IMG/VR virus record: IMGVR_UViG_3300037067_008637
Location: 1-64,000 of that record
Length of the DNA: 64,000 bases
Direction: 5' to 3' (one strand)
Source of the DNA: a virus
Lineage: Duplodnaviria > Caudoviricetes
Shown here: positions 26,005 through 51,139 of the stretch, piece after piece
Numbering within the stretch: position 1 is the first letter of the stretch
Layout of the letters: the number at the start of each line of letters is the position of its first letter
The notes under the pieces: model-generated
Seen by the model: the letters and a program-made list of their open reading frames with translations, nothing else
What the model was told of the DNA's origin: nothing
The model's database searches: none
Made by a program: the position numbers and the translations under genes

Positions 26005-29000
26005 GTCTATCTTCTCCTTCTGAATTTACTTTACAAGACATGTAGAGATCACTAAGCTTTTCATCCCCAAAATTCAAGGACAATCCTACTACATTCAAAT
26101 AGGATTCCAATATTCTCAAGGATTGTGGTCTATTGTCTTTATCCTCATCTTCATCAATTAACATTGGATTCTGTAAGATATCTGCAAGCATTGCATTCTT
26201 TTTAGCAACTGAATCGGAATGAACTGTTAGTAGATCTTTCAGATAGTCCTTTGCATTGTGTGCTAACCATGCCCACACTTCCATCTCACCAAGTCTGTGT
26301 CCCCCTCTATTGGATTTTCCACCCATAGGCTGAGACGTTTTCTTGTTGTATGGACCTATAGATCTTGCAGAGATTTTATCGCTCGCTCTATGTACAAGCT
26401 TGTCAAAATACATATATCCACATGCGATTGGCTTTCTAATTTCTAAGCCAGTTCCAACATCCGTTAACATATATTTATCTTGCGCACCAACGTAGTCCAT
26501 TGCTTGTTTCAATTTCATAGGTGAAGTGGATTGATAGCTAGGTTGTATTACGTATAACTCATCTATTGCTGTTTCTGTACCTTTTTCGTCTTGAATTCGT
26601 TTGAAATCCTCTAACACTTGAGCACTTGCCCACTTGTTTGGGGTTTCATCAATTATATTCAAGAAAGTCAACAGATCAGAAATTAATTCATCAATCTCTC
26701 CAGCAATCAATCTGGCTTTAAGCTTTTTCTTTAATTGATATACTGCTTCACCCATATGCAATTCACACAATTGGCCGACATTCATTCGAGACACGATACC
26801 TAAGGGATTGATAATGACATCAGGATGACGGCCATCTTCTAATAAAGGCATTTGATCATCCGGAATGACTTTAGCAATAACTCCTTTATTTCCATGTCTG
26901 TTTGCAATTTTGTCACCAATACCAATTGCTTCTTCATATACTCCTCTTATACGGAAAAGGATTCCTCCTACTTTCTCTCCTTTTACGTGATACTTACCAA
27001 TATGTTGATCATCACAGTTTAAGGAGGATAATCCATTTACCATAATAAACGTATCAAGTTCTTCCTTGGACATATACGGTTCCAAACTAGAAACGAGAAC
27101 ATCAAATCTCATGCTTTGTTCTGCAACAAGCGTGTCTATTTTTGCATCAAAGTCATCAATTCGTTTGTTCCAAGTATTGGGAAAAATCTCAACGGAAGCA
27201 ACTTTACAATCGATAGGAGAAACCTGCTCAATTGGTGCTTCGTTGATATTATCAAAACCGTTTTCCCAATCCAGTGTTTTAATTTTACCGTATACTTGTC
27301 CTTTCTTCAAAATTTGATTTGGTTTTGGAAGAGGAACATATCCATCTTTTTCAAGGGATAATAGAACTTGTCCGGATTCTACTTGAAAAGACAATTCTAC
27401 TGAATGAATTGACGTCATTTTCTTACTGACAGACTCTGAAATCATAATTCCATCTTCGTAGTTAAACCCTTTCCAAGGAATAACGGCAGTAAGGAAATTT
27501 CTTCCTAGGGACAATTCGCCATCTTTCAGGAATCTGGATGAACAAAGAATTTCACCTTTTTCGAATCTTTCTCCAGTATTAAATTTTCGTTCCACATAAT
27601 CTATTGAATTCAAATACAATGGACGATATCTAATATTGAAGACTTCAGCCTTCGGTTCATTCTCATCAGTTACATCATCATATGCAACAACCATAAAAAA
27701 TGGATCAACATATGTAACGATTCCATTATGTTTGGCAACATGCAAGAAATTGGTTCTTTCCAAATATGCGGATTCCAAACCTGAACGAACCGTAGCTTTT
27801 TCAGAGTCCACTAGCAAGATGGTTTGTTTAATTTGATTACTTGCCATTTGCAATCTTGTGGCGTCATCATGTTCCATAAACGGCACAAGATTGATAGGAA
27901 GAGAAGTAAGTACAGTTTCATCTACCACAGCGTTAAACATTCCGTTCTCTTTAATGTCTACAATCGGAACGAGATTTTGTATTACGCCGCAACCTTCTCT
28001 GTCGGGAGTATCCGCAGGACAGATTAATCCAAATTGACTTTCATCCATATTTCTCAAATGAGGAGGAACATTGTCTTTCTTAAATCCACCAGGCCCTACC
28101 AAACTGCATTGCATCAAGGCAGCAAGTTCGCCAACTGGATTAACTGGAAAGTTGTAATGAATGATATGAGCAACATCATTCTTCCCATTTTTTGGAGTGG
28201 ACGAATTGCAATTATCAATTAGAATGTTCTGAGGAATAGAAAACTTATCCTTGTGGGTTTTCTTGATTGCTATGAGCATGTCATACATCTTACGGACCAT
28301 TGGTGAAAGAATATACTCAGCTAGGCGTATCCTCTTTCTCCTTACATCCGTATCAGATTTAGGACCTTCCCCAATAGCATAAAGAAGTTCCAACAGAATT
28401 GAATTAGTGTGAAAGAACTGTCTTGTAAAATGATCTACTTCATATGCAGCCTTAATAGAGAAAAGAGTTCCTTCCCCTTTCCTATATTTTTCTGAAGGTT
28501 GATTCATGAAGAACTGACCCAAATATTCACAAGTCTGCTGGTAATTCCTTGCTTGATCCCAATGAAATTCAGCACCTTCCATTATACGAACAATGTATTC
28601 ATTATCCATATATGAAGGATGACTATCCAAGAACTCAGCAACTTCTTCCCGAGTGTGAACAGATGCTAACAATACATCAAATGGAACATCTTTATTAAAG
28701 ACTTGAACATTGATGTTCCCATCTCGTCTATTCAAATCAACACTCATAGAAATTGAATTTGTTCTCAGTTTTAGCATCGAAGTGGTTTTCGATACTTCTC
28801 TGTATATTATTGGAAGATCATACAATTGGAAGATGGGGACTTTTAGAAATCCCCCAATGTAAAAGAATTGATCGTATACCAATGTTGGAACTTGTATTGG
28901 ATACTCATGTTCTTTTCCATCAGGTGCAATCATTTTACAAACAATGATGCGAAATACACTCTTTTTCAAATCTTCTTTTTTCGTTGGTTTCTGTGAGGGT

Positions 29001-29143
29001 CTCCAAGAAGAACCTTGATACACCCATCCCTCAATCATTTGGACTGTTCCAAATATTTGATCAAGATGATATTGTATTGCATCAAGTGTCCATTCTTGCT
29101 TTCGTCTATTTAAGATATTGTCTCTTGTAAATCTAGGATCCAT
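25997..29143 (-). CDS. rpoB: Multisubunit RNA polymerase beta subunit (phage-encoded)
   Basis: CPADTPDREGCG, PFMEHDDATRLQMASNQ, GFNYEDG, GDKIANRHGNKGV, SRMNVGQ, GGHRLGEMEVWA. Confidence 0.95.
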   Translation of the reverse strand: MDPRFTRDNILNRRKQEWTLDAIQYHLDQIFGTVQMIEGWVYQGSSWRPSQKPTKKEDLKKSVFRIIVCKMIAPDGKEHEYPIQVPTLVYDQFFYIGGFLKVPIFQLYDLPIIYREVSKTTSMLKLRTNSISMSVDLNRRDGNINVQVFNKDVPFDVLLASVHTREEVAEFLDSHPSYMDNEYIVRIMEGAEFHWDQARNYQQTCEYLGQFFMNQPSEKYRKGEGTLFSIKAAYEVDHFTRQFFHTNSILLELLYAIGEGPKSDTDVRRKRIRLAEYILSPMVRKMYDMLIAIKKTHKDKFSIPQNILIDNCNSSTPKNGKNDVAHIIHYNFPVNPVGELAALMQCSLVGPGGFKKDNVPPHLRNMDESQFGLICPADTPDREGCGVIQNLVPIVDIKENGMFNAVVDETVLTSLPINLVPFMEHDDATRLQMASNQIKQTILLVDSEKATVRSGLESAYLERTNFLHVAKHNGIVTYVDPFFMVVAYDDVTDENEPKAEVFNIRYRPLYLNSIDYVERKFNTGERFEKGEILCSSRFLKDGELSLGRNFLTAVIPWKGFNYEDGIMISESVSKKMTSIHSVELSFQVESGQVLLSLEKDGYVPLPKPNQILKKGQVYGKIKTLDWENGFDNINEAPIEQVSPIDCKVASVEIFPNTWNKRIDDFDAKIDTLVAEQSMRFDVLVSSLEPYMSKEELDTFIMVNGLSSLNCDDQHIGKYHVKGEKVGGILFRIRGVYEEAIGIGDKIANRHGNKGVIAKVIPDDQMPLLEDGRHPDVIINPLGIVSRMNVGQLCELHMGEAVYQLKKKLKARLIAGEIDELISDLLTFLNIIDETPNKWASAQVLEDFKRIQDEKGTETAIDELYVIQPSYQSTSPMKLKQAMDYVGAQDKYMLTDVGTGLEIRKPIACGYMYFDKLVHRASDKISARSIGPYNKKTSQPMGGKSNRGGHRLGEMEVWAWLAHNAKDYLKDLLTVHSDSVAKKNAMLADILQNPMLIDEDEDKDNRPQSLRILESYLNVVGLSLNFGDEKLSDLYMSCKVNSEGEDRHD

Positions 29144-29157
29144 TGGTACTCCCTCAC

Positions 29158-31869
29158 TTAGTATCTGAACAGTGAAGTTAAAGCAGACGATTCATCTACT
29201 TCTTCCTCAATCAATCCAGTAATAAGCTTTTGTTTTAGATTGCTAAATGCACACCCAAGAAGCCAAGATGATCTAGCAGGTACTTGTAGAATGCTTACAT
29301 ATTCAGGTTCTACAGTATTTCGTGCAGGAAGAAGTCTCCACAATTTATTACCGTGCCACATCATTGATGCGGTGATGACTTCAAAATGAATATTTTTGAT
29401 GTCACCATATTGTCCGAATACTTTGTAGATTCTTCTTACCAAGTCACCAGGTGTAGTTATATCTTCAGGACTATGAAACATCTTTTTGGCAATAGTCATT
29501 CCCGAAATGATATCATCATTGTCTCCAGATTTTCCACCGGATGTAGATGCCGCACCTGAAATATGGAAGGTTCTTAATACTAATTGGGTTGCGCGTTCAC
29601 CAATAGCTTGCGTCGCAATGATACCGATTTGATCTGAGTGTAATATCTTGTAAAGATTTCCGTAACAAGTTTTACAAACCCTGTTATTTTTACAATATAT
29701 TGGACTTCTCAGTTTAACAATTTTGCCAACCATCTCACGATAATTGTTATGAGTTACAAGAATCTTTTGGCCATTCCCTCCAACGATAAACCGCCACATT
29801 AAGGATTTTGCTACATTTGCATCAGCTACAAACAAATCTAATGTATCGGTTGTACCACAGTCGTCTTCTTCTCCTAATTCCATATTGACTGTAGAATAGA
29901 TTAATTGTCTGGTTAGATATCCTGTATCTCCAGTAGACAATGCAGTGTCCAATAGTCCTTTTCTTGAACCCCAACAGCTATTGAAAAACTCAACGGGAGT
30001 TAATCCTGTTGTCAAACTTGATCTGATTAATGTTTCTCTTACATGATTGTCTGCATCCGCTACATATCCTCTAGACAATACCATCTGTCTAGCCTGATCC
30101 CATGTCCCTCTTGCACCGGATTCAATAAAGATAGCAAACGGAAGTTCTTTAAGCCGTCCAACAATTGCCGGATCGCTTTTAAGAGTTTCCATATCTTCCT
30201 CTACATTTCCAGTTAGTTCATCTGCATATCGAATCAATTGTTCATCATACAGATCAAATAAGGACAATGTAAATCCTTCGATAGTCACCATACTAAATCC
30301 TAACGACTTAATCTTATCGAAGGTATCCATAACTTGTTTTGGCGGATAATTCAAACATATATCGTTCATTATAGATCTGAGTTTATTCTTTGTAACAGTT
30401 TCGTTTATTACTGGATATTCTGTCGGTAAACACATATTAAATAAATATCTACCAAACGGAAGAACTGCTCCTTTATATACTCTTGTCTGCTCATCTTCTT
30501 GCTCTTTTGTTGCCGTGTAAATACCAAGAATGATATCTTGATTTGGCTTTGGTACAGCTTCTAAATCCGTAGGAGATAAAAGATTTGCCCATATTCCCAA
30601 ATTCTTTTTGGTATCTGCAATAGCTTCAGGTGTTATCGGAAAATACACAGCCATAGCATCCCCATCAAAGTCTGCATTATATGGAGAACAGATTAGAGGA
30701 TGTATTTGAATTGTATTTCCTAGATGCACTTTAACCTTGAACGCAAGTACGGATAGACGATGAAGAGTCGGTTGACGATTTAATACGCACACTTTGTCTG
30801 CACAAAATTCTTCAACTATATCAAAGAATTTCGGATCGCTATTTTCAATACTCTCATCAATAAGTTTGATCGCTTGATTATAACGTTTGCAAACACGTTT
30901 ATTGATGAAATGCGTGATTAGACATGGTTTAAGAATTTCTAAAACCATCCAATAGGGCAATCGGCATTCATCTAAATTGAGTGTTGGATCTGGAGAAATT
31001 ACTGCTCTTCCTGAAAAGTCAACTCGTTTTCCCAAAATATTGGAACGAATTAAACCCGTCTTTTTGCTCATACTTTCTAAGACGGAATCATACAGTTCTT
31101 GAACCAGCTTCTGTAAATATTTGAAATTGGTTTGATATACTGCATCATTGTCTCTTACAGGAAATGGCAGATTCTTCAGTTCTGTGGAAATCTTAATAAT
31201 CTTTTGATATCGTTTGTTGATATCATCAGATACATAATTGTCGCCGCGAAGTTTTCCACAAGGACGAAACTCTGGAGGAATGACTATGACATTCTGTATG
31301 GTTAATTGATCCCAGTGTTCATCTATGTAAGTCAACTCTGCTCTCGGCAGTATATTGGTATTCTCGTCACTTGCTTTTATCTTATCAATTTCTATCAAGT
31401 AACGAACATATGCGAGTACACCTTCTAGTCCTTCCAAATATTCAATATTCGGATCAGGATTATCAACATCAACCAACTTAGCGAGATTTCCATCTTCATC
31501 AAAGAAATACTTAGCTTTGAATGATAGCATCTCCTGGATGACTTTTCGTATCGTTGCTCTCTTGGATGCAACAAGATACAAAAACAACGGATTTAAAATA
31601 GGAAATGGCAGTTTGATTTTTCCAAACTGGCGCTTTCTCATTTCAGCCGTCGTGATTTTAACGTTGCATACAGGGCATACAGGCTGTTCGTATCTTGGTC
31701 CTTTATAAGGATTTTTTGTACAGGCACAATGATAAGATTTTAGAGGCCCAAACAACTGTTGACTAAATAACCCCTCCTTCGCGAACTTTCGATTTTCAAA
31801 AGGTTTTGCAAATGTTATTTCCGGTAAATCATCACTTACGTTATCGACATTAACAAGATCAATTTTCAC
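29158..31869 (-). CDS. rpoC: Multisubunit RNA polymerase beta' subunit (phage-encoded)
   Basis: N-terminal Zn site (CAC..CPVC), LGKRVDFSGRAVI, NRQPTLHR, catalytic NADFDGD, TGYLTRQL, TQLVLRTFH. Confidence 0.95.
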   Translation of the reverse strand: MKIDLVNVDNVSDDLPEITFAKPFENRKFAKEGLFSQQLFGPLKSYHCACTKNPYKGPRYEQPVCPVCNVKITTAEMRKRQFGKIKLPFPILNPLFLYLVASKRATIRKVIQEMLSFKAKYFFDEDGNLAKLVDVDNPDPNIEYLEGLEGVLAYVRYLIEIDKIKASDENTNILPRAELTYIDEHWDQLTIQNVIVIPPEFRPCGKLRGDNYVSDDINKRYQKIIKISTELKNLPFPVRDNDAVYQTNFKYLQKLVQELYDSVLESMSKKTGLIRSNILGKRVDFSGRAVISPDPTLNLDECRLPYWMVLEILKPCLITHFINKRVCKRYNQAIKLIDESIENSDPKFFDIVEEFCADKVCVLNRQPTLHRLSVLAFKVKVHLGNTIQIHPLICSPYNADFDGDAMAVYFPITPEAIADTKKNLGIWANLLSPTDLEAVPKPNQDIILGIYTATKEQEDEQTRVYKGAVLPFGRYLFNMCLPTEYPVINETVTKNKLRSIMNDICLNYPPKQVMDTFDKIKSLGFSMVTIEGFTLSLFDLYDEQLIRYADELTGNVEEDMETLKSDPAIVGRLKELPFAIFIESGARGTWDQARQMVLSRGYVADADNHVRETLIRSSLTTGLTPVEFFNSCWGSRKGLLDTALSTGDTGYLTRQLIYSTVNMELGEEDDCGTTDTLDLFVADANVAKSLMWRFIVGGNGQKILVTHNNYREMVGKIVKLRSPIYCKNNRVCKTCYGNLYKILHSDQIGIIATQAIGERATQLVLRTFHISGAASTSGGKSGDNDDIISGMTIAKKMFHSPEDITTPGDLVRRIYKVFGQYGDIKNIHFEVITASMMWHGNKLWRLLPARNTVEPEYVSILQVPARSSWLLGCAFSNLKQKLITGLIEEEVDESSALTSLFRY

Positions 31870-33588: not shown

Positions 33589-33820
33589 TCATGATGCCCT
33601 CCAACAATTTCAATTCAAAATGATTAAGTCCTTGAAGATCATCAATACTGTATTCCGGAAATTTCATTTCTAATTGGACCAAATGATGTCTAGTCCATTC
33701 ATTCATATCGTTTTCATATTGGTTTCTGATCAGTGCATCATCCCTCTCATTCACTTTCTTTCGTATGAAAAATATTGATCCAATGATCAGAACCAAAGCA
33801 ATAACAACAACCAGACTCAT
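33563..33820 (-). CDS. Small membrane-anchored protein
   Basis: N-terminal TM helix; ATGA overlap with the queC stop. Confidence 0.5.
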   Translation of the reverse strand: MSLVVVIALVLIIGSIFFIRKKVNERDDALIRNQYENDMNEWTRHHLVQLEMKFPEYSIDDLQGLNHFELKLLEGIMNENTEEKI

Positions 33821-36813
33821 TTCCCAATCCTTTTTCTCAAGATTTCTTTATTCTTCTCTGGAATTTCAAGTCGGTTTATGATATTGAGAATGTCTAGAGT
33901 TTTAACATCCAAAGAAGGAGGTTCATACGCTACATAATTACTATCATCTACAACATAATATGTCCTTCCATCTTCCAATCCAGCCATTTTACAGGACCAA
34001 TAACTCAGCAAACCACTACCGCATGCAGGCTTTCCATCTTTGGAGCAATTAGCAGGAACAGATACACAACCACATACTTTACCATCGAGATTCTTTAATT
34101 CCTGCTGAATCATCATAGGTCGATCACATGATACTAAGAATTTTTCAAGAGGCTTTAGAAATCCAAGCTGATTGAGAAGATGATATTGTTCTGTCTTTAG
34201 AATGTTACATAAACCATATAGGGGTTTGATGTGTAATCCAGCAATACTAAACTTAAAGAACTTTATTGCTGCATCTACAAACCGTTCGCAATTGTCCGGA
34301 TATGAATTGTGGGTTAACAATTTATTAACAAAGAAATTATTATTTGGTTCACAATAATAATTTATCATTTCCTGTTCACCATTAATAATCTCAATTCTCT
34401 CCAAATTCCATCCGTTTTGAAGGGAATATAAAAAATTAGTCACTCTAGATACAATCAGATTGGGATCATCTGTCTCAAGAATTGCCAAGTGATCCCACCC
34501 CATTTTTTTATATAATTGATGTCTGTTTTCAATTTCTTCTAAGGTGTGAAAATATCCAATTCCTCCATAGTATTCAACAATCTTTTTTTGTTCAATATTT
34601 ATAAAATCCGGATTCATATGTTTCCCGCTACTAGTTATCCAGATTTGTCCATCTCCTACAAATCTAAGAGGAAGAGAATGAGATTCAAATAGTAAAATCA
34701 ATTCTTTCTCTTTTTTATTGGGGCTTTCACATCCACAAATTGATGGATTTATTTTTCCTTCCGCAATCATTTTTAATGTGGCTTGTCTACATTTTTCTCT
34801 TCCTTCTGGAGTTTGATTCCAATGAATACCTCCGTTAGCAATCAGTCTTTCCTTATAAACCTGTTTCATTTTTTCGGAAAGAATTTGTTTTACATTTTCT
34901 CCTTCTTCTGAACTCCAAAAAATAGATAAACCATTTAGAATTCGTCTTCTATATTCTTCGTCCTTCCAACATTTTTTAGATGAGATTTTTCTGTTTTCAG
35001 TATCTCCAGTTTGATGAGTTTTTCCACACCAACACGGAATTGTATTACTACGAATATGTCCAAACATTGGATTTTTATCACCAAGAAACGCTTTCCTTAT
35101 TTTTTCTTTAATTTCAGGAAGCATTTTCTTTCCAGTTCTCCACGAGGACAGTTTTTGTCTGGTTTCGGCAGACACAGAATGTCCCATTCTACATTTAGAT
35201 CTTTTTTCAAAATCATATCCAGGAAACGCATTTCCTCTTTTAATGTTATCTTTCAGTTTACACTCTTTAATAGAATAGCACACATCACCAACAAATAATG
35301 CGTTCGCCTCCACCCAATTCTTTCCTTTTATAAAAAATGGATGAGTACCTGAAACAAAAAGGATTTTTTCACTTTGTATGCATCCAGAATTATATGTGAA
35401 AGTCAATTTGTAAGTGTCTTGGTGATGATTATTAAACTTCTCCTTTATAATGCTTTTTTCCAATAATCCCTTGTCGATATTGAAAGACATTATTTCATCC
35501 CCAACATTTAAATCGTTCGGAAGGACTTCTTTTCCATCATATCTTAAAATCCTGTTGTTAATATGATTTACAATACATCCAGATTCTGTTAATTGAAGAA
35601 ACCCCCCGGTAAGGTAAACGTCGTCGTATTGATTTGTCATTATTAGAGATTCTGCTAAAGCACCCATATGTACAAGCATTAAATGATTACGGAAAGTAGT
35701 CCACGCGGCAGTCGTCTTCAATCCTTCTTCCGTTCCGGTTATGATCTTTGCCTTAGGATCTGTCAGCATTCCAAAATCCAGTTTGGACATTGCGTCGCTA
35801 ATATCAAATTCTCTTAACTCTATTCCAAGAGCCTTAGTAACGTGCCCAATAGCCGCTCTTTCACAATCCTGTCCTCTGTGTCCATATTTAAAGTGAACAG
35901 CAATCGGATTCATTTCTGCTGCCTTCAATGTTGCTAGTGTTGTAGAACTATCCAATCCTCCGGAAGCTGCAACAAGGACACATTCTCTCTTCGGTTTTGT
36001 TTTATCTTTCTTGTACACATCATACGTCGACGTAATGTATCTTGGTTCAAAGCTACTACCAGACACCATTCCACTATCCAAGTCAATACTAGTAATAGAA
36101 TATTCCGGTACTCTATGAGCATAATAATCTTCCCAGAGAGCCATTGTATTCTTTTCTATCTTTTGTCCTTTAAGTAAAGATATGGTTTCCCAAATGGATT
36201 CTTCTGTAGATGCTGCAAAGAATCCCCAACCTCTCAAATACCCGCAGTACAAAGGTGAATGGGTACAAACTAAGTACATGCAATTCTTCTGAGTATCTAC
36301 TAAAACAAATGCGAAGCCACCAGAAAGATAGTTCATAGTATCATTCATGTTTCGTCCGAACATAAGATAAGCGTGGATAATTGCTTCGCTATCAATGTCC
36401 GTTTGATATTCATATTCAAAACCAGATTCTTTTAATTCTTTCTGAATAATGGATGATACTGCACCATTGTGTACTAAATACAACCCATGCTCCCTGTTAC
36501 ATATTGGTTGGACATTTCTCTCTACGTTACTTACACCGCATTCGGTTTCGGGAGCGGCTCTTGCATTGGATAGAATAACATCTCCTTTTTGAAAAACATC
36601 CATAGGATAAGACGGATGCGGCAAATTATGCAATATTGTGGTACATTCAGTTACATCACTTGTTTTGTAGCACACTCCGGGCTGGTGCTGCCCTCTAATA
36701 AGGACAGCACCAAACCCATCGGTACCACGTTTCAATGATTGAAGCCATGCTGATTTGATCACATGTTTAGAAATCGATGCTTCTCTCATGTAAAATGCGG
36801 TAATTCCACACAT
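33817..36813 (-). CDS. queC: Class II glutamine amidotransferase-QueC fusion (Gat-QueC), intein-containing
   Basis: MCGI N-terminus, RGTDG, VHNG, DIDSE (Ntn GATase); SGGLDS PP-loop, YGHRGQ, FRNHLM and YPDN (QueC). Confidence 0.88.
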   Translation of the reverse strand: MCGITAFYMREASISKHVIKSAWLQSLKRGTDGFGAVLIRGQHQPGVCYKTSDVTECTTILHNLPHPSYPMDVFQKGDVILSNARAAPETECGVSNVERNVQPICNREHGLYLVHNGAVSSIIQKELKESGFEYEYQTDIDSEAIIHAYLMFGRNMNDTMNYLSGGFAFVLVDTQKNCMYLVCTHSPLYCGYLRGWGFFAASTEESIWETISLLKGQKIEKNTMALWEDYYAHRVPEYSITSIDLDSGMVSGSSFEPRYITSTYDVYKKDKTKPKRECVLVAASGGLDSSTTLATLKAAEMNPIAVHFKYGHRGQDCERAAIGHVTKALGIELREFDISDAMSKLDFGMLTDPKAKIITGTEEGLKTTAAWTTFRNHLMLVHMGALAESLIMTNQYDDVYLTGGFLQLTESGCIVNHINNRILRYDGKEVLPNDLNVGDEIMSFNIDKGLLEKSIIKEKFNNHHQDTYKLTFTYNSGCIQSEKILFVSGTHPFFIKGKNWVEANALFVGDVCYSIKECKLKDNIKRGNAFPGYDFEKRSKCRMGHSVSAETRQKLSSWRTGKKMLPEIKEKIRKAFLGDKNPMFGHIRSNTIPCWCGKTHQTGDTENRKISSKKCWKDEEYRRRILNGLSIFWSSEEGENVKQILSEKMKQVYKERLIANGGIHWNQTPEGREKCRQATLKMIAEGKINPSICGCESPNKKEKELILLFESHSLPLRFVGDGQIWITSSGKHMNPDFINIEQKKIVEYYGGIGYFHTLEEIENRHQLYKKMGWDHLAILETDDPNLIVSRVTNFLYSLQNGWNLERIEIINGEQEMINYYCEPNNNFFVNKLLTHNSYPDNCERFVDAAIKFFKFSIAGLHIKPLYGLCNILKTEQYHLLNQLGFLKPLEKFLVSCDRPMMIQQELKNLDGKVCGCVSVPANCSKDGKPACGSGLLSYWSCKMAGLEDGRTYYVVDDSNYVAYEPPSLDVKTLDILNIINRLEIPEKNKEILRKRIGK
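34306..35577 (-). mobile_element. Intein (424 aa) with NUMOD3-like repeats and a Vsr/DUF559-like endonuclease
   Basis: Splice junctions ESG|CIVNH...NNFFVNKLLTHN|SYPD; block B SGTHPF; HSVSAETRQKLS/NPMFG repeats; PDFINIEQKKIVEYYG..YFH. Confidence 0.88.
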
Positions 36814-37769
36814 TAATCATCCTCCAGTCTTTCGCCATCCTCAAATTGTCCTAAAGAAATTCCACAATCATCAGATTCAAGTTCACATCCTAATTCTCTT
36901 GCACCAATATTGAAATCAAACTGATCATCATCTTCCTCTTGTACAAACTCTTCTTCTTCCTCATATTCATCATCCGCATCTAATACTCTTCCTGTTTGTC
37001 GCTTACCGTTAAGGTGTTTGAAGATAGATTGTCTTTTAGGAGAACGCTCACGCTCACGCGTATATCCGCCGGATAACTCCATATGAGGATCAATTGAACC
37101 ATTACACTGTCCCATCATAGCATATCGACTAATTAAATCCATTTCCTCTTGAGAATCAACCCATCCGAACTGATTTGAAAATGCATATCTTTCTCCCCAA
37201 GATCCTCGAATGGGCTGCATTGTTCTTTCCGTAATTTTGTTTGATCCTACAATGTCAGTAGTTGAAAGCAATCCTTCATCCGCTGGTGTAAGCTTCAATC
37301 TAGCAAAGAAACCATAATTTCCAACAGGTAAAGTAGCAATTGCCTTTACAATACTTCTATCTGTCCACAACAATGAAAATCTAAAATTAGCATTGATGTA
37401 TCTCTCATCTGTTCCCGAGAAATTAGCGCATCCCGCAGGATGTCTATGCAATACTGTATTAAACTGTAAACCGGGATCTTCTTTGTAATCAATATGTGCT
37501 GTAGAAACTTCTTGCTGCGGAATATAATATTCTTCCTCAATTACAAAAGCTTCTGCATCTGCGTTCCAATTTGTCTTACAAAATATTGAAAACTCCGAAG
37601 TTTTGAATACATCATTTAGTCCATTCATGACTTTTCGGATGAATGATGGAACAACGATTTTTAGTTCGTGCTTAATTACCAACGAGTTGGTAATGATTGT
37701 GTCCTTTCCATCTTTGGTTACTGTTGCCTTACCGCCTTTGATTTCTTCTCCAGTATCTAGATCTTGCAT
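36813..37769 (-). CDS. JAB/MPN+ metallo-isopeptidase (prokaryotic JAB)
   Basis: SEF...IPQQEVS...LHRHP..CANFSGTD matches the E-HxH-S-xx-D JAB motif; long acidic tail. Confidence 0.85.
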   Translation of the reverse strand: MQDLDTGEEIKGGKATVTKDGKDTIITNSLVIKHELKIVVPSFIRKVMNGLNDVFKTSEFSIFCKTNWNADAEAFVIEEEYYIPQQEVSTAHIDYKEDPGLQFNTVLHRHPAGCANFSGTDERYINANFRFSLLWTDRSIVKAIATLPVGNYGFFARLKLTPADEGLLSTTDIVGSNKITERTMQPIRGSWGERYAFSNQFGWVDSQEEMDLISRYAMMGQCNGSIDPHMELSGGYTRERERSPKRQSIFKHLNGKRQTGRVLDADDEYEEEEEFVQEEDDDQFDFNIGARELGCELESDDCGISLGQFEDGERLEDD

Positions 37770-38713
37770 CAGTCTAACTCCACATTTTCGTTGGTATTTG
37801 CCACTGGTAAATGTTTTTCAACTATGTTCAAAAAGTCTTGTTTTAGTATATCATCTGTGATTGTCTTTGCGCATTTATCTCCATCGTTTGTCATACGATC
37901 CAAAATGACACCTTTAAAGATGTATTCAAGAATATCCTCAACATTAAAGGTAAGAGGATTATCAAGTATCCAACGATATTTACTTGGTTCAGATTGATAT
38001 CTTTTTATATTGATTGCTCCAACTAATACAAGAAGAGCAGCCATTGATGCGGGAATGATATGAGACGGAGTAATTGTGTATCCCCCTCTCCCCATTACAG
38101 GATGATCCATTGGATTGAAATCAATCGTGATGCTTGAGCCATTGTATGCAGCACGAATTATATAGATTTCTTTTTTGAATATTTTGTCAAGAAGATCATA
38201 ATCATTGTAAAAATTATCTCGACAATCAATTACCAAAACATCCTCGTTTGGGAGAAATGGATGGTGAACAGTGTGATACGTTTCACTTCCAATACCAAAT
38301 CTCTCAGCAAACCTTGCATCAAAATACTGATTTAAAGGAACAACTGTGAGTAAAGGATTTGACGTACAAAGCATACTTGTTAATGCAGATACTTTCAAAT
38401 TTCCCACAGTTGAAATATCAAATGGCGTTCTATTGAGATTGGATATTTCAATCACATCTGGATCAACCAATATCAAATACTTCACTGCCTGTATACCAGC
38501 TATAAATGTTGCAACCCATGCACCAATTCCTCCGCATCCTAATATCATTACCTGCTCACACATTCTATTGGTACAACTAGATAGAACTGTTTGCACGTCA
38601 TTGGCATCATCCGCATGATTTCTAGAAAACATTTCGTCAGATATAGTACCTGCATTTTCATACGTATATGAATCCAATGACAATGTAATAAGACTGTTAT
38701 TGTTCGCGTCCAT
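37769..38713 (-). CDS. E1/ThiF-family adenylating enzyme
   Basis: ILGCGGIG, VDPDVIEISNLNR, GNLKV, VIDCRDN. Confidence 0.9.
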   Translation of the reverse strand: MDANNNSLITLSLDSYTYENAGTISDEMFSRNHADDANDVQTVLSSCTNRMCEQVMILGCGGIGAWVATFIAGIQAVKYLILVDPDVIEISNLNRTPFDISTVGNLKVSALTSMLCTSNPLLTVVPLNQYFDARFAERFGIGSETYHTVHHPFLPNEDVLVIDCRDNFYNDYDLLDKIFKKEIYIIRAAYNGSSITIDFNPMDHPVMGRGGYTITPSHIIPASMAALLVLVGAINIKRYQSEPSKYRWILDNPLTFNVEDILEYIFKGVILDRMTNDGDKCAKTITDDILKQDFLNIVEKHLPVANTNENVELD

Positions 38714-38747
38714 GTTTCAACCCTTCTTTGTGATCTACTGGAATTTT

Positions 38748-40199
38748 CTAATCTAATTCTACCCAATCTCTTCCAGTTTCTTTTGTAATGTTTCGTTTAG
38801 TATGATCCGCTTCAAATTTTCGAAGAGCATTCTTATATTGTGGACCTAATTGTTTAGGAGTAAAATCATTATTCAATCCCTTGTAGGAAGAATCAAAATT
38901 GATAATTTCTAATACTTCTTCAATCTGTCTAAAGAAATATTCGATTACCTCAACAGAAATGTTTTGAGAATCCGATGTTGTGATTGTGTTCCATCTGGAG
39001 GTAAGATCATATCCTAAACATACACGGTGATCACTTCTAGACACATTTGGATGATCTCCTTCACAATGAACTATGATTTCTCTTCCTGAAAATAACTTTG
39101 GATCTATAATCAATTTATCAACATGATATTTTCTGAATGCATCTTCCAATATATAAAGAACACCATTTTGATAGCATTTTTCTGGAATGATTTTTACCTT
39201 TTTTACCCACACTTTTCCATAGTTTTTTTCATCCTTCAAAGAGAAACCACATTTTGCAATTCTGGAAAATACAGACATTCCTAATTGCATTCCTTGATTA
39301 AATGCATCTTTTTTCAAGCTATCAGAAGCATTTATAATTTGAATAAGAGCCTTCTTATAAAGGGTTCCTTGGTTCATAAGAAGGGAATAATGTATGCCAC
39401 TAATATCTATTCCGCCTCGATTAAAATCTGCAACATCTCCCGCACACAACGATCTGAGTTGCTTATTTATCTCATTGATGATTGTTTTATTATCTAATAA
39501 TGTCATTCTTCCTTCTGCCGCATTTCGCTCGATTTTTAGAAGGATGGATGTAATTAGATCTTTTCCCAATTCTGCTGGATTTTGTCCTTCATATACATCT
39601 TTTTGGAGAGATTGAAAATCAAAGATTTTCTTAATAATAGAACAGGTTTTCATTGCTCCAATCTGGTACCACAACGTAGCAATGGCCATTTCGTGAAAAT
39701 ATAAAATCCCATTAATCCCAATAAATGCAATCGGAACTTTAATATCATCCCCAGCAGTAAATACCGCAAACAACCATTTATTCAGGGCATTAGTAACTCT
39801 AAAAGACATCTGGGATGCCATGTTTTTGTACAACAAGAATCTACTATTACTGGGAGCATCTACATACATTTCAACCGCTGTATACATATCATAACAATGC
39901 AGATAGTTTAGAGTTGAAAGTGTCGGAAGTTGCACAGACACGATGCTCCGAAATATAGATGGTTGTCCTTGCACGTTTTGTGCATAATCATATAATGCTG
40001 TATCTATATTGCTGTATGTTGTAACAACAAATCTGCTTGAATTTATTGGCAAACAGTTTGCAATAGCTTCAATTCTCAATGAAACAGCGTCATAATCATC
40101 ATCCGAAAATTTTTGTAAATTTATAGTCCCTTCATTTTTCGAAGCATTCTTTTTTTGTTGATAAACAGATTGATCGATTTTAACGGACGTGATGCTCAT
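38748..40199 (-). CDS. E2/UBC-like conjugating enzyme with a long N-terminal extension
   Basis: C-terminal HPNVSRSDHRVCLG...IEEVLEIINFDSSY matches UBC HPN(I/V)xxxxx(I/V)CL...LL..PN.DS; AGGAG RBS before ATG at 40199. Confidence 0.75.
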   Translation of the reverse strand: MSITSVKIDQSVYQQKKNASKNEGTINLQKFSDDDYDAVSLRIEAIANCLPINSSRFVVTTYSNIDTALYDYAQNVQGQPSIFRSIVSVQLPTLSTLNYLHCYDMYTAVEMYVDAPSNSRFLLYKNMASQMSFRVTNALNKWLFAVFTAGDDIKVPIAFIGINGILYFHEMAIATLWYQIGAMKTCSIIKKIFDFQSLQKDVYEGQNPAELGKDLITSILLKIERNAAEGRMTLLDNKTIINEINKQLRSLCAGDVADFNRGGIDISGIHYSLLMNQGTLYKKALIQIINASDSLKKDAFNQGMQLGMSVFSRIAKCGFSLKDEKNYGKVWVKKVKIIPEKCYQNGVLYILEDAFRKYHVDKLIIDPKLFSGREIIVHCEGDHPNVSRSDHRVCLGYDLTSRWNTITTSDSQNISVEVIEYFFRQIEEVLEIINFDSSYKGLNNDFTPKQLGPQYKNALRKFEADHTKRNITKETGRDWVELD

Positions 40200-40221
40200 T
40201 TTCATCTCCTGTTTTAATGGC

Positions 40222-40257
40222 AAGGGAGAGGACCCTGCTATTAGGATCCTCTCCCTT
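40222..40257 (-). promoter_or_regulatory. Strong intercistronic stem-loop between the Ubl and E2 genes
   Basis: AAGGGAGAGGATCCT-AATAGC-AGGGTCCTCTCCCTT, with no U-tract. Confidence 0.6.
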
Positions 40258-40268
40258 AGTGACTTTGT

Positions 40269-40838
40269 TTATTGGCCGGCTTTGTTGTGTCTCTCAACCG
40301 CAACGAAGATCAGCACGGGATTGCAGTTAACGTTTTCAGGATCTACAATTCGACCTACCGACAAATCGCGAAGTACGCAATTTTCAATCTGCGTAAGAGC
40401 ACAATAGCTCTGAATCGCTCCCAAAATGTTTTCCGGAGATTTGATGAGAATGTGCTTCTCTCCATTGATTACCAAAATGCGTTGAGTGCGAGTGATGTTG
40501 TGAACACTTGCATTCGGAAACACAACTCGGAAACCCTTGGACGTTTCGGCAATATCATACCCACGACAATCAACCGGAATTTCAACAGAATTCGGATCAA
40601 ATTCGGACACCGAATACTTCTCATGATTGGCAAGCACGTTTTCATCAAGAAGAGCATACCGCGTATACCGATCATCATTATTCTCTTCAATGGCACCAAC
40701 TTCCACCAACGCTTCCAAAATTTCACCAAGCTTCTTCGTCTTCTTGGCATAACTCAACACCTGAGCAATCGCATTGCCCGTCAGCATTTCATCATTGTTA
40801 ACAATTACATCGAGTACTTCTTGCTTCGTCAAAGACAT
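40269..40838 (-). CDS. Winged-helix domain fused to a putative ubiquitin-like (beta-grasp) domain ending KAG-Q
   Basis: N-terminal wHTH pattern (LTGNAIAQVL..KKLGEILEALVEVGAIEE..RYAL); C-terminal beta-beta-alpha-beta-beta pattern ending VAVERHNKAGQ; first gene before E2-E1-JAB; GGAGG RBS. Confidence 0.65.
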   Translation of the reverse strand: MSLTKQEVLDVIVNNDEMLTGNAIAQVLSYAKKTKKLGEILEALVEVGAIEENNDDRYTRYALLDENVLANHEKYSVSEFDPNSVEIPVDCRGYDIAETSKGFRVVFPNASVHNITRTQRILVINGEKHILIKSPENILGAIQSYCALTQIENCVLRDLSVGRIVDPENVNCNPVLIFVAVERHNKAGQ

Positions 40839-40911
40839 TAGAATTTCCTCCGAGTCATTAATTTTTTATTGTCAAAGAACAACAGCCCACCCACAAGGAT
40901 GGGTTGCTTAT

Positions 40912-42124
40912 ACAAGAGAAGCAGGAAAACCTCCTCCTTTAGGGGGAGGATGAACTGCTCTGAACTAGAAAATTGAGAACAAGTGAATAGGATAAAACTA
41001 TATATAAGTTTATTCTTTTAACGATTGGAGAGATTATATGAAATTAATGAAGAGTTATACTGCTAGAATTGAAGGCAATGCCTGTAAATCTAGCAATCTG
41101 CTCTTCATTCTTTCCAAATTAAAAGAAATGTCCCAATACGTTTTCGAAGGCGGACCAGATTATTGGTTCGACTTCATGGCCATGTATCATGATTGTCGTA
41201 AACGTTATCCAGAATTAAACTCGAAAATACTGCAGAATTTTCTGCAACTTTATCGTCCTATTAAAGGACGAAAATTGCCCAAATCTGCAATTAAACCGAT
41301 TATTGTTCTAGATCAAAATTTCAATTTGAAATTCAATGAATGCTCTAAATATTCGAACTGGTGGTTACGATTCGGACGCCGAAATTATCCCTTGAGAGGA
41401 AAGAGAATCCTCTCTCGTATCAAGGACATATCAGGCGTTACAGAATGCCGTATCTTTGTTCGAAACAATAAAGCATATTGCAAATTGACATATGCTGAAG
41501 AGGCTCCAGAAATAACATCAACTGATAATCCAGTTGGAATCGATCTCAACACCAAGCGAATTGTTTCCTCTTCAAATAAAGTATACCATATAAAACGATG
41601 GTTTCATCGTAAGATGGAGAATAAGAAGAATCGTGGAAAGAACAATATTGATCAATTCACGAAACATACCATTCACCAGATCACGAATCAGATTATCGCG
41701 GATCTCGTCCGAACAGAATCAAAGGTTTTGATCCTGGAGGACCTTAAGGATCTTCGAAAGTCTTCATCGAGAAAGAATGGAACTTCAAAAGGAAAAGAAC
41801 TCAATTATCGAATAAATAATTGTTTTCCAACCGCGATGTTCCGACAAATTCTTTCTTATAAATGTTTAGAAAACGGAATCAAATTGGAATTCGTAGATCC
41901 TGCATACACCTCGAAAGCTTGCTCGCGATGCGGCTCGCAAGAGACGCTTCGAGAGACTCAATCGAGGTTTGAATGCACGTCTTGTGGATTTCAATTGGAC
42001 GCCGATCTAAACGCTTCTAGAAACATTCTATTCCGGTATACCGGAGAGAATGGCTCGCCAGTCGATCCGAGCCGGTTTTCCCAAGGGAAAGCCAAGCTGG
42101 TCCCTTTAGGGGCCAGTAGTTGAC
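40912..42124 (+). mobile_element. Non-autonomous IS200/IS605-family (IS1341-type) element
   Basis: Left hairpin CCTCCTCC-TTTA-GGGGGAGG (40930-40949), right hairpin CTGGTCCC-TTTA-GGGGCCAG then TAGTTGAC; tnpB only; boundaries approximate. Confidence 0.75.
41038..42123 (+). CDS. tnpB: TnpB RNA-guided nuclease
   Basis: RuvC GIDLN / ILEDL / DADLNASRNI and Zn ribbon CSRCG..CTSCG; the only long plus-strand gene in the region. Confidence 0.9.
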   Translation: MKLMKSYTARIEGNACKSSNLLFILSKLKEMSQYVFEGGPDYWFDFMAMYHDCRKRYPELNSKILQNFLQLYRPIKGRKLPKSAIKPIIVLDQNFNLKFNECSKYSNWWLRFGRRNYPLRGKRILSRIKDISGVTECRIFVRNNKAYCKLTYAEEAPEITSTDNPVGIDLNTKRIVSSSNKVYHIKRWFHRKMENKKNRGKNNIDQFTKHTIHQITNQIIADLVRTESKVLILEDLKDLRKSSSRKNGTSKGKELNYRINNCFPTAMFRQILSYKCLENGIKLEFVDPAYTSKACSRCGSQETLRETQSRFECTSCGFQLDADLNASRNILFRYTGENGSPVDPSRFSQGKAKLVPLGASS

Positions 42125-42136
42125 AGAATAGAGGGA

Positions 42137-43147
42137 TTAGTGTCTGGATGCAAATATCGTTGTCATCTGTTTTTGGATATAAGAGCGCATGTTCATATGG
42201 CAGCGCACATCATAATTCAAGTCCAAGCAATACGAGGCGATCAATATTGCTACCAAGAAATTACGATGTTCAGGAGGAAGATTTTCCCAATAGGAATTGA
42301 AAATACCCTTCTCCGTTTTCTTTAGGCATTTCGCCAACTTATCTGCATGAATATCAACATTGTGAGTAATACCCTTTAGAATGGTAGTACTTTCATTGTA
42401 GTGCTGTTGAATCTGAGTAAGATCCGCGGATACTGCACCAAGACTATGTGTAGTATGCGTGAACGTATGATTGCGATTCGTCAATGTGAAATAATCACGG
42501 AATCCAATACGATCGTTCCCGCTGTTTTGAAGTTTGATGTGAACAGCGAAATCAATACGAATCGACGCAGTTCCGTTGTATGTATTGGTAACACAAACAT
42601 CTACATTAGAATTTGCATTACTTAATACATCAGAGCTTACACCACTGATAATTTCAAAGGCGAGCTTAGCTTCATCATCTCCTAATACATCAATCGGTGT
42701 AGTCGTTTTACCTGTTGCAGAAAGAATAAAAGGTGCACCATGTACAATCGGTTCACCATCAAATTCCACCTGACGAGCCAATTCATCATAGAAAGGATTG
42801 ACTTTAGCAACCACATATTCCTTCGAAAGCAATCCGCCTTTCAAAACTTGCCAAACAGGTTCTGGCTGCATTTCATCTTTATAGAATCCTGCAAATGCAC
42901 CAGTCTGTTGCGCATCAGGCGTATAGATTTCTTCGAACCGATAGGTATGCCGTCCAAATTCTGTAAACTCCACAGGAATATGAAGGCCGTTTTCCCCTAT
43001 CTCATTCGCAAGAGGTTCCACCCAAGAAATCGTAGGAGCAGGAAGGGTGTTTTCTTGAAGCGTTTCAGGAACTTCTTCGAGCGTTAGGATTGTAGCCGTG
43101 TTTCCATCATTTACCAAAGCATCAAGGTTATCATTAGGTTCTGTCAT
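42137..43147 (-). CDS. Hypothetical protein, possibly DUF932-like
   Basis: VCVTNTYNGTASIRIDF...FTH resembles the DUF932 core. Confidence 0.45.
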   Translation of the reverse strand: MTEPNDNLDALVNDGNTATILTLEEVPETLQENTLPAPTISWVEPLANEIGENGLHIPVEFTEFGRHTYRFEEIYTPDAQQTGAFAGFYKDEMQPEPVWQVLKGGLLSKEYVVAKVNPFYDELARQVEFDGEPIVHGAPFILSATGKTTTPIDVLGDDEAKLAFEIISGVSSDVLSNANSNVDVCVTNTYNGTASIRIDFAVHIKLQNSGNDRIGFRDYFTLTNRNHTFTHTTHSLGAVSADLTQIQQHYNESTTILKGITHNVDIHADKLAKCLKKTEKGIFNSYWENLPPEHRNFLVAILIASYCLDLNYDVRCHMNMRSYIQKQMTTIFASRH

Positions 43148-43468: not shown

Positions 43469-43855
43469 TTATTCATCAGCTTGGGCGGCACCACCCTCTG
43501 CGGGGGCATCTACATCCGCCAACACAACCGCATCCGCTTCATTTTCGGGAATAACCGTTTCCGCTACCGGTTCATCTTCATCCGGTTCACCACTATCACC
43601 CAAATCGTTAATCGCATCAACAACAAACCGGGGTTTCTTCGTGAGGTAGGAGCTATCCCACTCAAGTACCGGCGTGCCACTATCATCTACCACAGCCTGA
43701 AGTTTTCCATTCTCATCAATCTTGCCAAAGTTATCATGCACATGCTCAAGCGCCTGCTTTTGCGCCGATTCTGCATCACGAGCAATAACGTTCATCACCG
43801 TAATTTCACGACTGTAACTCTGGAACCCAACAACTACTTCATACTTATTCGACAT
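43469..43855 (-). CDS. Hypothetical acidic protein
   Basis: 128 aa, GGGAG RBS, acidic tail. Confidence 0.6.
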   Translation of the reverse strand: MSNKYEVVVGFQSYSREITVMNVIARDAESAQKQALEHVHDNFGKIDENGKLQAVVDDSGTPVLEWDSSYLTKKPRFVVDAINDLGDSGEPDEDEPVAETVIPENEADAVVLADVDAPAEGGAAQADE

Positions 43856-50404: not shown

Positions 50405-51139
50405 TTAATACCCAACTATATTCAGCAACCACACTGGTTTTTGATCATTGTCATATACTCTCTTTATATCATATCTTCCATTGAAAACTTTGTCAACATT
50501 TGTTAGAATCATTGATTCCAAAGGAAGCCATTCTTCCGCACCTATTTTTCGCCAAGAAATATTTCTAATTTCAGATTGAGTTGCTGTTAATTGAATTGGA
50601 AGTTTTTCTCTAGAAATATGTTCGGCCGCAGATGCTTCTGCTTTAAGAATTTCAAGTACGGAAAGATATTCAGATGCAATATTGCAAAAATCTGAAATTT
50701 CCCCTTGGTTTAAATCACAAGTAGCAAACGCGGTATCGGTTTCCCACACAGAAATCCTACCAATGATTACACCAAGATACTCCAATGATTTACAAAACTT
50801 CTTCAATAGAAAATAACACATGTTTTCTGCAGTCGGATTATCGGACACTGCATAAGCTCTATTACCTTTTAACCAACCCAACTTTACAACATCCAGATCC
50901 GATTGATTGTATATTAGAGCATGATCCCAATTTTCATCAATCCATGTTCCAAGAGTTTTCTTAATTACACTGAAATCAACTAGACGTCCTACTGAATCTA
51001 ATTTCGGTCCAAATGCAGTTACTTCAACCACATAGGAGTGGCCATGAATACTACTGCATCTTCCTTCATGCCCAACCAAACGATGGGCACACTCAAATTT
51101 AAGTTGTTTTGTACAAGATATTGTCATATTAGACATCAT
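50405..51139 (-). CDS. queD: 6-carboxy-5,6,7,8-tetrahydropterin synthase with a C-terminal extension
   Basis: FECAHRL..C..IHGHSY, VDFS, WDH, NPTAEN, VWET. Confidence 0.9.
   Translation of the reverse strand: MMSNMTISCTKQLKFECAHRLVGHEGRCSSIHGHSYVVEVTAFGPKLDSVGRLVDFSVIKKTLGTWIDENWDHALIYNQSDLDVVKLGWLKGNRAYAVSDNPTAENMCYFLLKKFCKSLEYLGVIIGRISVWETDTAFATCDLNQGEISDFCNIASEYLSVLEILKAEASAAEHISREKLPIQLTATQSEIRNISWRKIGAEEWLPLESMILTNVDKVFNGRYDIKRVYDNDQKPVWLLNIVGY

Follow-up and report, generated by a model that had tools for sequence, protein, structure and literature searches.

Does a bacteriophage write ubiquitin-style marks of its own, and what would a winged helix do on such a mark? This question is raised by a minus-strand gene in a stretch of 64,000 nucleotides from the IMG/VR virus record IMGVR_UViG_3300037067_008637 (Caudoviricetes; positions 1 to 64,000), which is referred to as the window in the following. 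Its product of 189 amino acids (aa) consists of an N-terminal winged helix-turn-helix (wHTH) domain and a C-terminal ubiquitin-like (Ubl) domain. It is followed by genes predicted to encode a protein resembling ubiquitin-conjugating enzymes (E2), a ThiF-type enzyme resembling ubiquitin-activating enzymes (E1) and a JAMM/JAB metallopeptidase, here called JAB (Table 1). Taking together the folds of both domains, the C-terminal motif and the conserved gene cassette, the 189-aa protein is probably the modifier of a phage-encoded Ubl-E2-E1-JAB conjugation cassette.

Domains and C-terminus of the modifier

The full-length AlphaFold2 (AF2) model, which was built on an alignment of 69 sequences, reached a mean predicted local distance difference test score (pLDDT) of 91.9. 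According to the DSSP assignment of this model, residues 1-63 comprise three helices (5-13, 21-27 and 35-46) and two strands (50-53 and 60-63) and thus form a winged helix. The best-ranked structural matches of the full-length model were winged-helix proteins, namely the N-domain of Rio2, Fur/PerR, RosR, MarR-type proteins, DsrD and also Z-alpha. VIA-align returned a best Z of 8.9 (2g9w_B, 75 residues aligned at a root-mean-square deviation (rmsd) of 4.1; 1ku9_B, 75 residues at rmsd 2.5), and all 50 of its rows fell in residues 1-87 with 60-80 residues aligned. The winged helix is followed by an acidic linker (residues 64-94) of low model confidence.

Because the winged helix filled both structural match lists, residues 83-189 were modelled separately (pLDDT 93.7, predicted template modelling score 0.84). 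In this model three extra strands (95-116) precede a beta-beta-alpha-beta-beta-3/10-beta succession. The top Foldseek row was 8tyx_A, the Ubl from a bacterial Ubl-deubiquitinase complex (E 1e-2, probability 0.94), and nearly all rows listed were beta-grasp domains of the ubiquitin, SUMO, ISG15, PB1, Ras-binding and UBX types; none of the rows had an E-value of 0.001 or below. The comparison with 48,161 chains by VIA-align gave best Z scores of 6.6 and 6.5 (1euv_B, Smt3/SUMO, 71 aligned, rmsd 2.6) and a Z of 5.3 for the bacterial Ubl 8tyz_B. These matches always covered positions 34-107 of the model, which correspond to protein residues 116-189; the preceding beta extension lies outside their range.

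The preliminary description of the gene had proposed an N-terminal wHTH domain over residues ~1-63, a short beta-rich middle region and a C-terminal part of about 70 aa with beta-grasp-like periodicity and a Gly masked by one residue. Structure prediction, which it had suggested as a check for each domain, recovered the winged helix and the beta-grasp at pLDDT 92-94 as well as the strands in between, and the chain indeed ends ...ERHNKAG-Q with a single residue behind the Gly.

An exhaustive HMMER search of 1.84 billion representatives detected 68 relatives at E ≤ 1e-3, 22 of them at E ≤ 1e-10. The relative P0002 (63% identity), which was also the sole match of a word-index search, terminates exactly at ...HNKAG. 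The near-invariant columns of the 69-sequence alignment are G93, P108, I124, N125 and N185-K186-A187. Based on a manual count, 66 of the 69 sequences end with N-K-A-[G/A] followed by 0-3 residues, if rare variants like N-K-G-G and H-K-A-A are included; the remaining three carry the motif followed by 15 residues, the motif followed by 41 residues, and a truncated end. The 16 Ubl copies derived from the loci described below all contain N-K-A-[A/G] and differ in the tail behind it, which comprises no residue in nine copies, one residue in four, and two, 14 and 21 residues in one copy each. Such a distribution of tails agrees with a C-terminus that undergoes trimming before its activation.

Most family members also keep the winged helix, and several carry two in tandem. 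Both features whose conservation had been in question, the KAG(x) end and the wHTH domain, are thus widespread among the homologues, the latter being present in 14 of the 16 locus-derived proteins. One of the two copies without it is cut by a contig end (L022), whereas the other is a complete protein of 147 aa (L005, identical to L006) which lacks the domain and retains the beta-grasp, the tail and the entire cassette.

Sequence-based annotation barely reaches this family. Pfam yielded only weak, scattered wHTH matches in family members and none for the C-terminal domain, and nothing meaningful was found for the Ubl of the window in Pfam, PHROGs, NCBIfam and PADLOC. A sequence search of the PDB with the Ubl was without match, as were tblastn searches of 50,697 phage records with the Ubl, the JAB and the 491-aa E2-like protein and a blastn search with positions 36000-42000 of the window. 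Locus scans with alignments of the window's own Ubl clade likewise returned none in IMG/VR, JGI metagenomes and GTDB genomes. As neither Pfam nor PHROG contains a model of the Ubl family, both the Ubl and the E2-like protein currently remain unannotated in phage genomes.

The gene is preceded by a strong GGAGG ribosome-binding site, as had been noticed before, and is separated from the E2-like gene by an RNA hairpin (-29.7 kcal/mol, z -4.4) which folds better than all of its shuffled versions (0/200 equally well) and was not called as a terminator in terminator prediction. The combination of both elements would fit a modifier that is made in excess over its enzymes. The gene had also been described as visibly more GC-rich than its neighbours. 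The rise is real, with a GC content of 0.43-0.44 over 40200-40949 compared with 0.31-0.39 in the flanks (in steps of 300 nt), but it is not unique within the window, where similar peaks occur at 35700-35999 (0.44), 41850-42149 (0.47) and 43500-43799 (0.50). A plus-strand mirror open reading frame (ORF) of equal length (40272..40841) was discarded as a shadow; it is the minus-strand product to which all evidence from homology and structure applies.

The four-gene cassette and its surroundings

Alignments of the Ubl sub-family and of the 491-aa protein were used to fetch 29 loci from IMG/VR and JGI metagenomes. The removal of seven duplicates left 22 distinct loci, or 23 including the window, and members of the cassette were called on all ORFs of these loci with profiles made from our own alignments. 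The E1 gene is located behind the E2-like gene in 22 of the 23 distinct loci, the JAB gene follows in 21 (the other two end too early), and a Ubl of the family is encoded directly upstream of the E2-like gene in 16 of the 17 loci with room for it. The exception is L009, where the E1 gene precedes the E2-like gene. As 12 of the 13 loci fetched through the E2-like protein alone carry the Ubl upstream, the co-occurrence is not built into the search. All four genes are conserved together across sequences that are only 20-30% identical.

The variant locus L009 (3226-3519 and 4422-7251) has the order E1, E2-like, JAB without a family Ubl. An ORF of 97 aa in this locus with a Lys/Ala-rich basic N-terminus and the end ...PKKG was considered as a substitute and rejected (hhalign probability 1%). 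Furthermore, the E1 gene is split into two ORFs in L012 (5180-5869) and the E2-like gene into two in L025 (2-1280), which may reflect decay or an assembly error.

The E1-like enzyme matches the Pfam family ThiF (PF00899) with 1.8e-18 and 67 bits at a cut-off of 28.1. All 21 sequences share its GxGGxG motif, D84, R95, K107 and D163-C-R-D without exception. Conservation of Cys is limited to the one within D-C-R-D, as no other Cys column exceeds 57%. Y212 is invariant as well (21/21). In NCBIfam, models for ThiF and MoeB matched best, each of them far short of its cut-off, and tblastn against the phage records retrieved only five weak ThiF matches. For the JAB, the Pfam match to Prok-JAB remained below the cut-off (19.2 versus 25). 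In all 17 sequences the residues E59, H108, H110, S118 and D121 are unchanged, and they constitute a full JAMM site (E...HxH...S..D). All JABs end in strongly acidic tails. In two loci they contain a C-terminal insert with two CxxC pairs resembling a zinc ribbon (L002, 11268-12218; L003, 11278-12288), which is absent from the JAB of the window.

The 491-aa protein, which may alternatively be called from residue 7 (P0003, 485 aa), has homologues of 390-780 aa that share only the C-terminal ~170 aa (BLASTP 2e-24 and 2e-13). This part contains the signature HPN-x7-9-C-x-G followed by L-x-x-I-N-[FY]-D-S, in which the P, N, C and G are present in 20 of 20 sequences and the H in 19; the I-N-[FY]-D-S element is likewise shared by all 20. 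The spacing of 7-9 residues between HPN and Cys is what we take to be the canonical UBC spacing, in agreement with the alignment to UBE2A/B. When the profile of the 20 sequences was compared with the PDB, all six matches at E ≤ 10 were eukaryotic UBC-type E2s (UBE2A/B and relatives) at E-values of 0.59-1.4, which are not significant on their own; HPN falls on HPN in this alignment and the Cys on the Cys of '...GSICLDIL' in UBE2A/B. In the ESM Atlas the structural neighbours of the L002 homologue include clusters with Prok-E2_D (63% of members, TM 0.51) and E2-CBASS (25%, TM 0.48), which can serve only as a lead. The window's own 491-aa protein gave a poor model there and no usable match, and word-index searches with it returned almost nothing. 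The protein is tentatively addressed as E2-like because of its signature, with a putative UBC fold.

Table 1. Positions of the modifier gene, its domains and signals, and the genes downstream of it in the window.
Feature	Position	Strand	Evidence
wHTH-Ubl gene, 189 aa	40269..40838, stop codon included	(-)	ORF; 68 relatives; AF2 pLDDT 91.9
Winged-helix domain, residues 1-63	40650..40838	(-)	DSSP; Foldseek and VIA-align wHTH matches; weak Pfam wHTH matches in family members
Three-strand beta extension, residues ~95-115, preceding the beta-grasp	40494..40556	(-)	Strands 95-98, 102-106 and 112-116 in both models
Beta-grasp (ubiquitin-like) domain, residues 116-189	40272..40493	(-)	Model of 83-189; Ubl/SUMO/PB1 matches
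C-terminal motif N185-K-A-G188 and masking residue Q189	40272..40286	(-)	N185, K186 and A187 near-invariant in 69 sequences
GGAGG ribosome-binding site, 8 nt before ATG (40836-40838)	40847-40851	(-)	Sequence reading
15-bp RNA hairpin between Ubl gene and E2-like gene	40222..40257	(-)	RNA folding; no U tract after it
491-aa protein, N-terminal half and UBC/E2-like C-terminal core	38748..40223	(-)	No family match; motif and weak profile matches
Putative E2 active site H391-P-N393 ... C402	39018..39053	(-)	Conservation in 20 sequences; UBE2A/B alignment
ThiF-type E1-like adenylating enzyme, 314 aa	37769..38713	(-)	Pfam PF00899 1.8e-18; PADLOC E1-E2 models
JAMM/JAB metallopeptidase, 318 aa, acidic C-terminal tail	36813..37769	(-)	Weak Pfam Prok-JAB match; conserved residues
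Gat-QueC (glutamine amidotransferase and QueC), intein-interrupted	33817..36813	(-)	Pfam QueC, GATase_6/7, PT-HINT, NUMOD3, Intein_splicing

The window also encodes a T4-type terminase, RNA-polymerase beta/beta'-like genes, a lysozyme/M23 protein of 2,460 aa, SbcCD and topoisomerase II; the two large genes at 25997-31869 match RNA polymerase Rpb2- and Rpb1-type domains. The related loci are located on IMG/VR contigs of 45-275 kb, and all long contigs look like large phages. In the loci annotated with Pfam (window, L001, L002 and L003) the cassette lies beside Mre11/Rad50-type genes.

The start of the JAB gene overlaps the stop of the E1 gene, and in the same manner the start of the Gat-QueC gene overlaps the stop of the JAB gene. 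Gat-QueC was found behind the JAB in the window, in L001 and, on inspection by eye, in L005, and not in L002 or L003; it is most simply read as a lineage-specific neighbour that probably stands outside the system. Its intein (PT-HINT/Intein_splicing over residues ~434-836) contains a homing-endonuclease module (NUMOD3, 561-590), whereas the orthologues of L001 (563 aa) and L005 (580 aa) lack the insert. Since FolE and QueD-like (PTPS) genes are encoded elsewhere in the window (25267-26004 and 50405-51139), far from Gat-QueC, the simplest reading assigns Gat-QueC to a deazaguanine DNA-modification pathway as it is described for phages (PMC6884629). QueE and DpdA were not found among the window ORFs scanned. 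Behind Gat-QueC, L001 (13225-13827) and L005 (10931-11500) encode a second short ThiF-like ORF of 189-200 aa, which matches the E1 profile with 4e-08 over the nucleotide-binding part and Pfam ThiF with 1.5e-4; a clear counterpart was not detected in the window.

On the other side of the cassette, a TnpB (Cas12f1-like TNB) gene on the plus strand (41038-42123) is located between the Ubl gene and a minus-strand gene for a 336-aa protein (42137-43147). Homologues of the latter adjoin the Ubl gene directly upstream in L001 (7011-7985, 31% identity) and L005 (4488-5369, 27% identity), so that the TnpB gene of the window seems to have been inserted recently. The end of the TnpB element may include two hairpins at 40886-40950, and a second TnpB is encoded at 58849-60063 on the minus strand. 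The 336-aa family, which has no match in Pfam or PHROG, sits immediately upstream of the cassette in one clade, while in the other clade (L002, L003) this place is taken by a DUF2786/DUF7168 protein. Either protein could be a target or partner.

A further set of genes was noticed in the crAss-like phage cr111_1 (NC_055880.1, 1767-6313) beside a primase and a uracil-DNA glycosylase. It comprises a ThiF gene, a protein of 415 aa containing the JAB motif HxH...S..D and one of 211 aa with a Foldseek match to the Ubl model (23% identity, E 7.5e-2). The Ubl and E2-like profiles do not match there, and it was rejected as a member of the cassette; crAss-like phages thus have an E1/JAB/beta-grasp set which is analogous to the cassette but distinct from it.

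Proposed pathway and alternative explanations

A pathway for the cassette can be outlined as follows. The JAB would remove Q189, or the longer tails of the relatives, and thereby free the carboxylate of G188 (Ala in many relatives), which would be adenylated by the ThiF-type E1. Being devoid of a catalytic cysteine, the E1 might pass the acyl group via the invariant Tyr212, a route that has been shown for Bub E1s, or hand the adenylate directly to the E2-like protein, whose Cys402 near HPN would receive the Ubl as a thioester. The Ubl would then be moved to an amine on a target, which may be picked by the large N-terminal half of the E2-like protein, and removal of the mark may be a further task of the JAB. 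With each conjugate would come a winged helix, attached by an acidic linker, that could serve for docking or for binding nucleic acids. Since the cassette is located among replication and recombination genes of large phages, its targets might be sought in DNA metabolism or host take-over, which is a guess.

The preliminary description had proposed that conjugation would attach a nucleic-acid-binding module to targets, for example to tether proteins to phage DNA or to retarget an enzyme. This idea is not supported: the wHTH domain of the window has a net charge of -4 (family median 0, range -9 to +11), the family's linkers are highly acidic (mean -4.9), and the complete 147-aa relative manages without the domain. 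Columns 5, 26 and 32 of the wHTH domain are conserved as basic, with K32 being basic in 94% of the members. Winged helices also act as protein-docking modules, and the one considered here may bind nucleic acid or dock on a protein.

Several points weigh against the assignment as a conjugation cassette. The cassette is known here from genes and models, and its conjugates, thioester and cleavage are predicted. The E1 has no catalytic cysteine, which canonical E1s need. About 26 of the 69 family members (manual count) end in Ala-Ala instead of Ala-Gly, whereas ubiquitin-like modifiers normally have a Gly at the reactive terminus. The beta-grasp scores are modest (Foldseek E 1e-2, VIA-align Z ≤ 6.6) and middling by the tool's own note, although the match lists are uniform and the fold is small. 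For the E2-like protein, the insignificant PDB matches are accompanied by poor Atlas models (pLDDT 0.31 and 0.38), and none of the 20 sequences matched the Pfam families UQ_con and Prok-E2 at E ≤ 10. Finally, the loci might all come from a single broad group of related large phages, in which case common ancestry accounts in part for the order of the genes.

Alternatively, the cassette could serve counter-defence against the ubiquitin-like immunity of the host (Bil, type II CBASS, Bub). The JAB would then strip conjugated host Ubl or cGAS proteins from phage or host proteins, while the Ubl, E1 and E2 of the phage would act as decoys or competitors and would not mark targets of their own. Such host systems are directed at proteins of the phage and stand under the control of JAB peptidases (10.1101/2023.09.04.556158; PMC11601596), and the phage JAB has a complete active site. 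However, a lone peptidase would suffice for this purpose, whereas here four genes, a processed C-terminal motif and the E2 Cys are kept together at 20-30% identity; PADLOC moreover gave no sequence match to Bil or CBASS Ubl/E2 models. We consider counter-defence unlikely. It seems quite unlikely, too, that the 189-aa protein is a non-conjugated wHTH factor of transcription or DNA metabolism whose beta-grasp is an interaction domain and which is regulated by the E1 and JAB through processing or C-terminal modification. Such a role would agree with the good wHTH fold, the basic K32 and the position of the gene as the first in the operon with its strong ribosome-binding site and the hairpin behind it. 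Yet the best-conserved part of the family is the beta-grasp with the N-K-A-[G/A] end and not the wHTH domain, which one member lacks altogether, and the invariant Cys beside HPN in the neighbouring protein would have no role in a mere regulator.

Two further explanations draw on the PP-loop enzyme (QueC) behind the JAB in the window, L001 and L005. The Ubl might be a sulfur carrier similar to ThiS, MoaD or TtuB that is thiocarboxylated by the ThiF-type enzyme and feeds a thiolation, perhaps by this downstream enzyme. ThiF and MoeB are the best NCBIfam matches of the E1, albeit far below the cut-offs, and sets of E1, JAB and ThiS/MoaD-like proteins are known in sulfur metabolism (PMC1779556). 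A carrier of this type appears highly improbable, though: the terminus is A-G or A-A and not G-G, neither a rhodanese nor a cysteine desulfurase turned up among the neighbours scanned (window, L001, L002 and L003), and the conserved E2-like protein would have no place. The PP-loop enzyme itself is not beside the cassette in L002 and L003, and since it has its own glutamine amidotransferase it uses nitrogen and not sulfur. Alternatively, the E1-activated C-terminus or an amine of the target might be joined to an intermediate of Gat-QueC, resulting in a protein-nucleobase or protein-DNA adduct. That the JAB gene overlaps Gat-QueC in the window and is followed by it in L001 and L005 as well could be taken in this sense, and QueC-family enzymes can form protein-nucleobase amide bonds in type IV CBASS (10.1101/2025.04.06.647259). 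The absence of Gat-QueC beside the cassette in L002 and L003, however, makes this link to 7-deazaguanine extremely improbable, all the more as FolE and the QueD-like gene of the window fit an ordinary phage DNA-modification pathway (PMC6884629) and a survey of the QueC family (PMC13082051) does not mention ThiF, JAB or ubiquitin.

Conjugation of the 189-aa modifier by the enzymes of its own cassette hence remains the reading that we favour. A more far-reaching version of it, which has to be regarded as rather doubtful, would be that a lineage of large environmental phages possesses a complete ubiquitin-style pathway, composed of a eukaryote-type HPN-Cys E2 fused to a large target-recognition region, a Cys-less and Tyr-bearing E1 as in Bub, a JAMM maturase and a wHTH modifier. 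Tagging would then equip proteins of the phage or the host with a DNA/RNA-binding or docking module in the course of replication instead of marking them for removal.

Relation to known ubiquitin-like systems

Descriptions of Ubl conjugation among bacteria have so far presented it as a weapon of the host against phages (Bil, type II CBASS and probably Bub). A conserved phage-side cassette of the same logic would show that the viruses of bacteria also write such marks, and the use a virus makes of them could be tested on it. Its unusual parts, namely the eukaryote-like HPN-Cys signature of the E2-like protein, the Cys-less E1 and the winged-helix cargo on the modifier, bear on the evolution of the E1-E2 relay and on the Ubl as a delivery vehicle for a second domain. 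Our literature searches did not retrieve a description of a phage-encoded Ubl-E2-E1-JAB set, although phage-borne or winged-helix cases might be listed in the supplementary tables of Bil and Bub operons (e.g. Table S1 of PMC11601596, PMC11601603). The phages of this group appear to possess a hitherto undescribed ubiquitin-style tagging system of their own.

Beta-grasp proteins with a C-terminal Gly that occur beside a ThiF adenylase and/or a JAB are also represented by ThiS/MoaD with ThiF/MoeB and by TAPI/TAPK of phage lambda, and Ubl-JAB pairs have earlier been noted in phages in the context of tail assembly (PMC1779556). In contrast to these, the modifier described here ends in A-G or A-A and not in G-G, it is accompanied by an E2-like protein, and its genes are found in a replication and recombination setting and not in a tail module. 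Unlike in the ThiS/MoaD-ThiF/MoeB sets, sulfur-transfer genes were not seen among the neighbours scanned. The E2-like protein resembles the UBC-type E2s of eukaryotes and archaea (e.g. UBE2A/B) in the distance between HPN and Cys and in the subsequent helix with an end similar to LL-x-x-N. It differs from them in its long unrelated N-terminal half, and neither the profile E-values of 0.6-1.4 nor the missing UQ_con match set it among them with significance.

The Bil system unites the same four activities in one operon (BilA, Ubl; BilB, E2; BilC, JAB; BilD, E1), with the E2 activity here being indicated by the motif and weak profile matches, and the BilA structures 8tyx_A and 8tyz_B are among the best matches of the C-terminal domain. 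In type II Bil the deubiquitinase (DUB) removes one residue after the Gly before activation (10.1101/2023.09.26.559546), which parallels the single residue behind G188. Bil is described as lacking an E3, the E2 being thought to select the targets (PMC11601596). The present cassette, however, is encoded by phages whereas Bil is found in host defence islands, and its order is Ubl-E2-E1-JAB instead of Ubl-E2-DUB-E1. The E1 consists of a single ThiF domain of 230-330 aa without a catalytic Cys whereas that of Bil is of the IAD-AAD-CYS type. Furthermore, the E2-like protein with its HPN...Cys signature comprises 390-780 aa, the Ubl carries a winged helix, and the PADLOC and Pfam models for the E2 or Ubl of Bil, CBASS or Bub do not match.

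The E1 recalls that of Bub (6E/DUF6527), a ThiF/UBA5-like enzyme whose crossover region is described as containing an invariant tyrosine and no cysteine (PMC11601596). The E1 of the phages has no conserved Cys outside D-C-R-D, and its invariant Y212 may correspond to that tyrosine. Bub Ubls, too, carry varied N-terminal domains, which are disordered, coiled-coil or DUF1508 (PMC11601603); the words 'winged' and 'helix-turn-helix' do not occur in the text of that article. In contrast, Bub E2s work through serine and oxyesters, while an invariant Cys is present in the E2-like protein, DUF6527/BubE was not detected among the Pfam-scanned neighbours (window, L001, L002 and L003), and the genes are separate whereas BubAB, BubCD and BubBD fusions exist in Bub. 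The phage cassette is therefore closest in logic to Bil and Bub and a member of neither.

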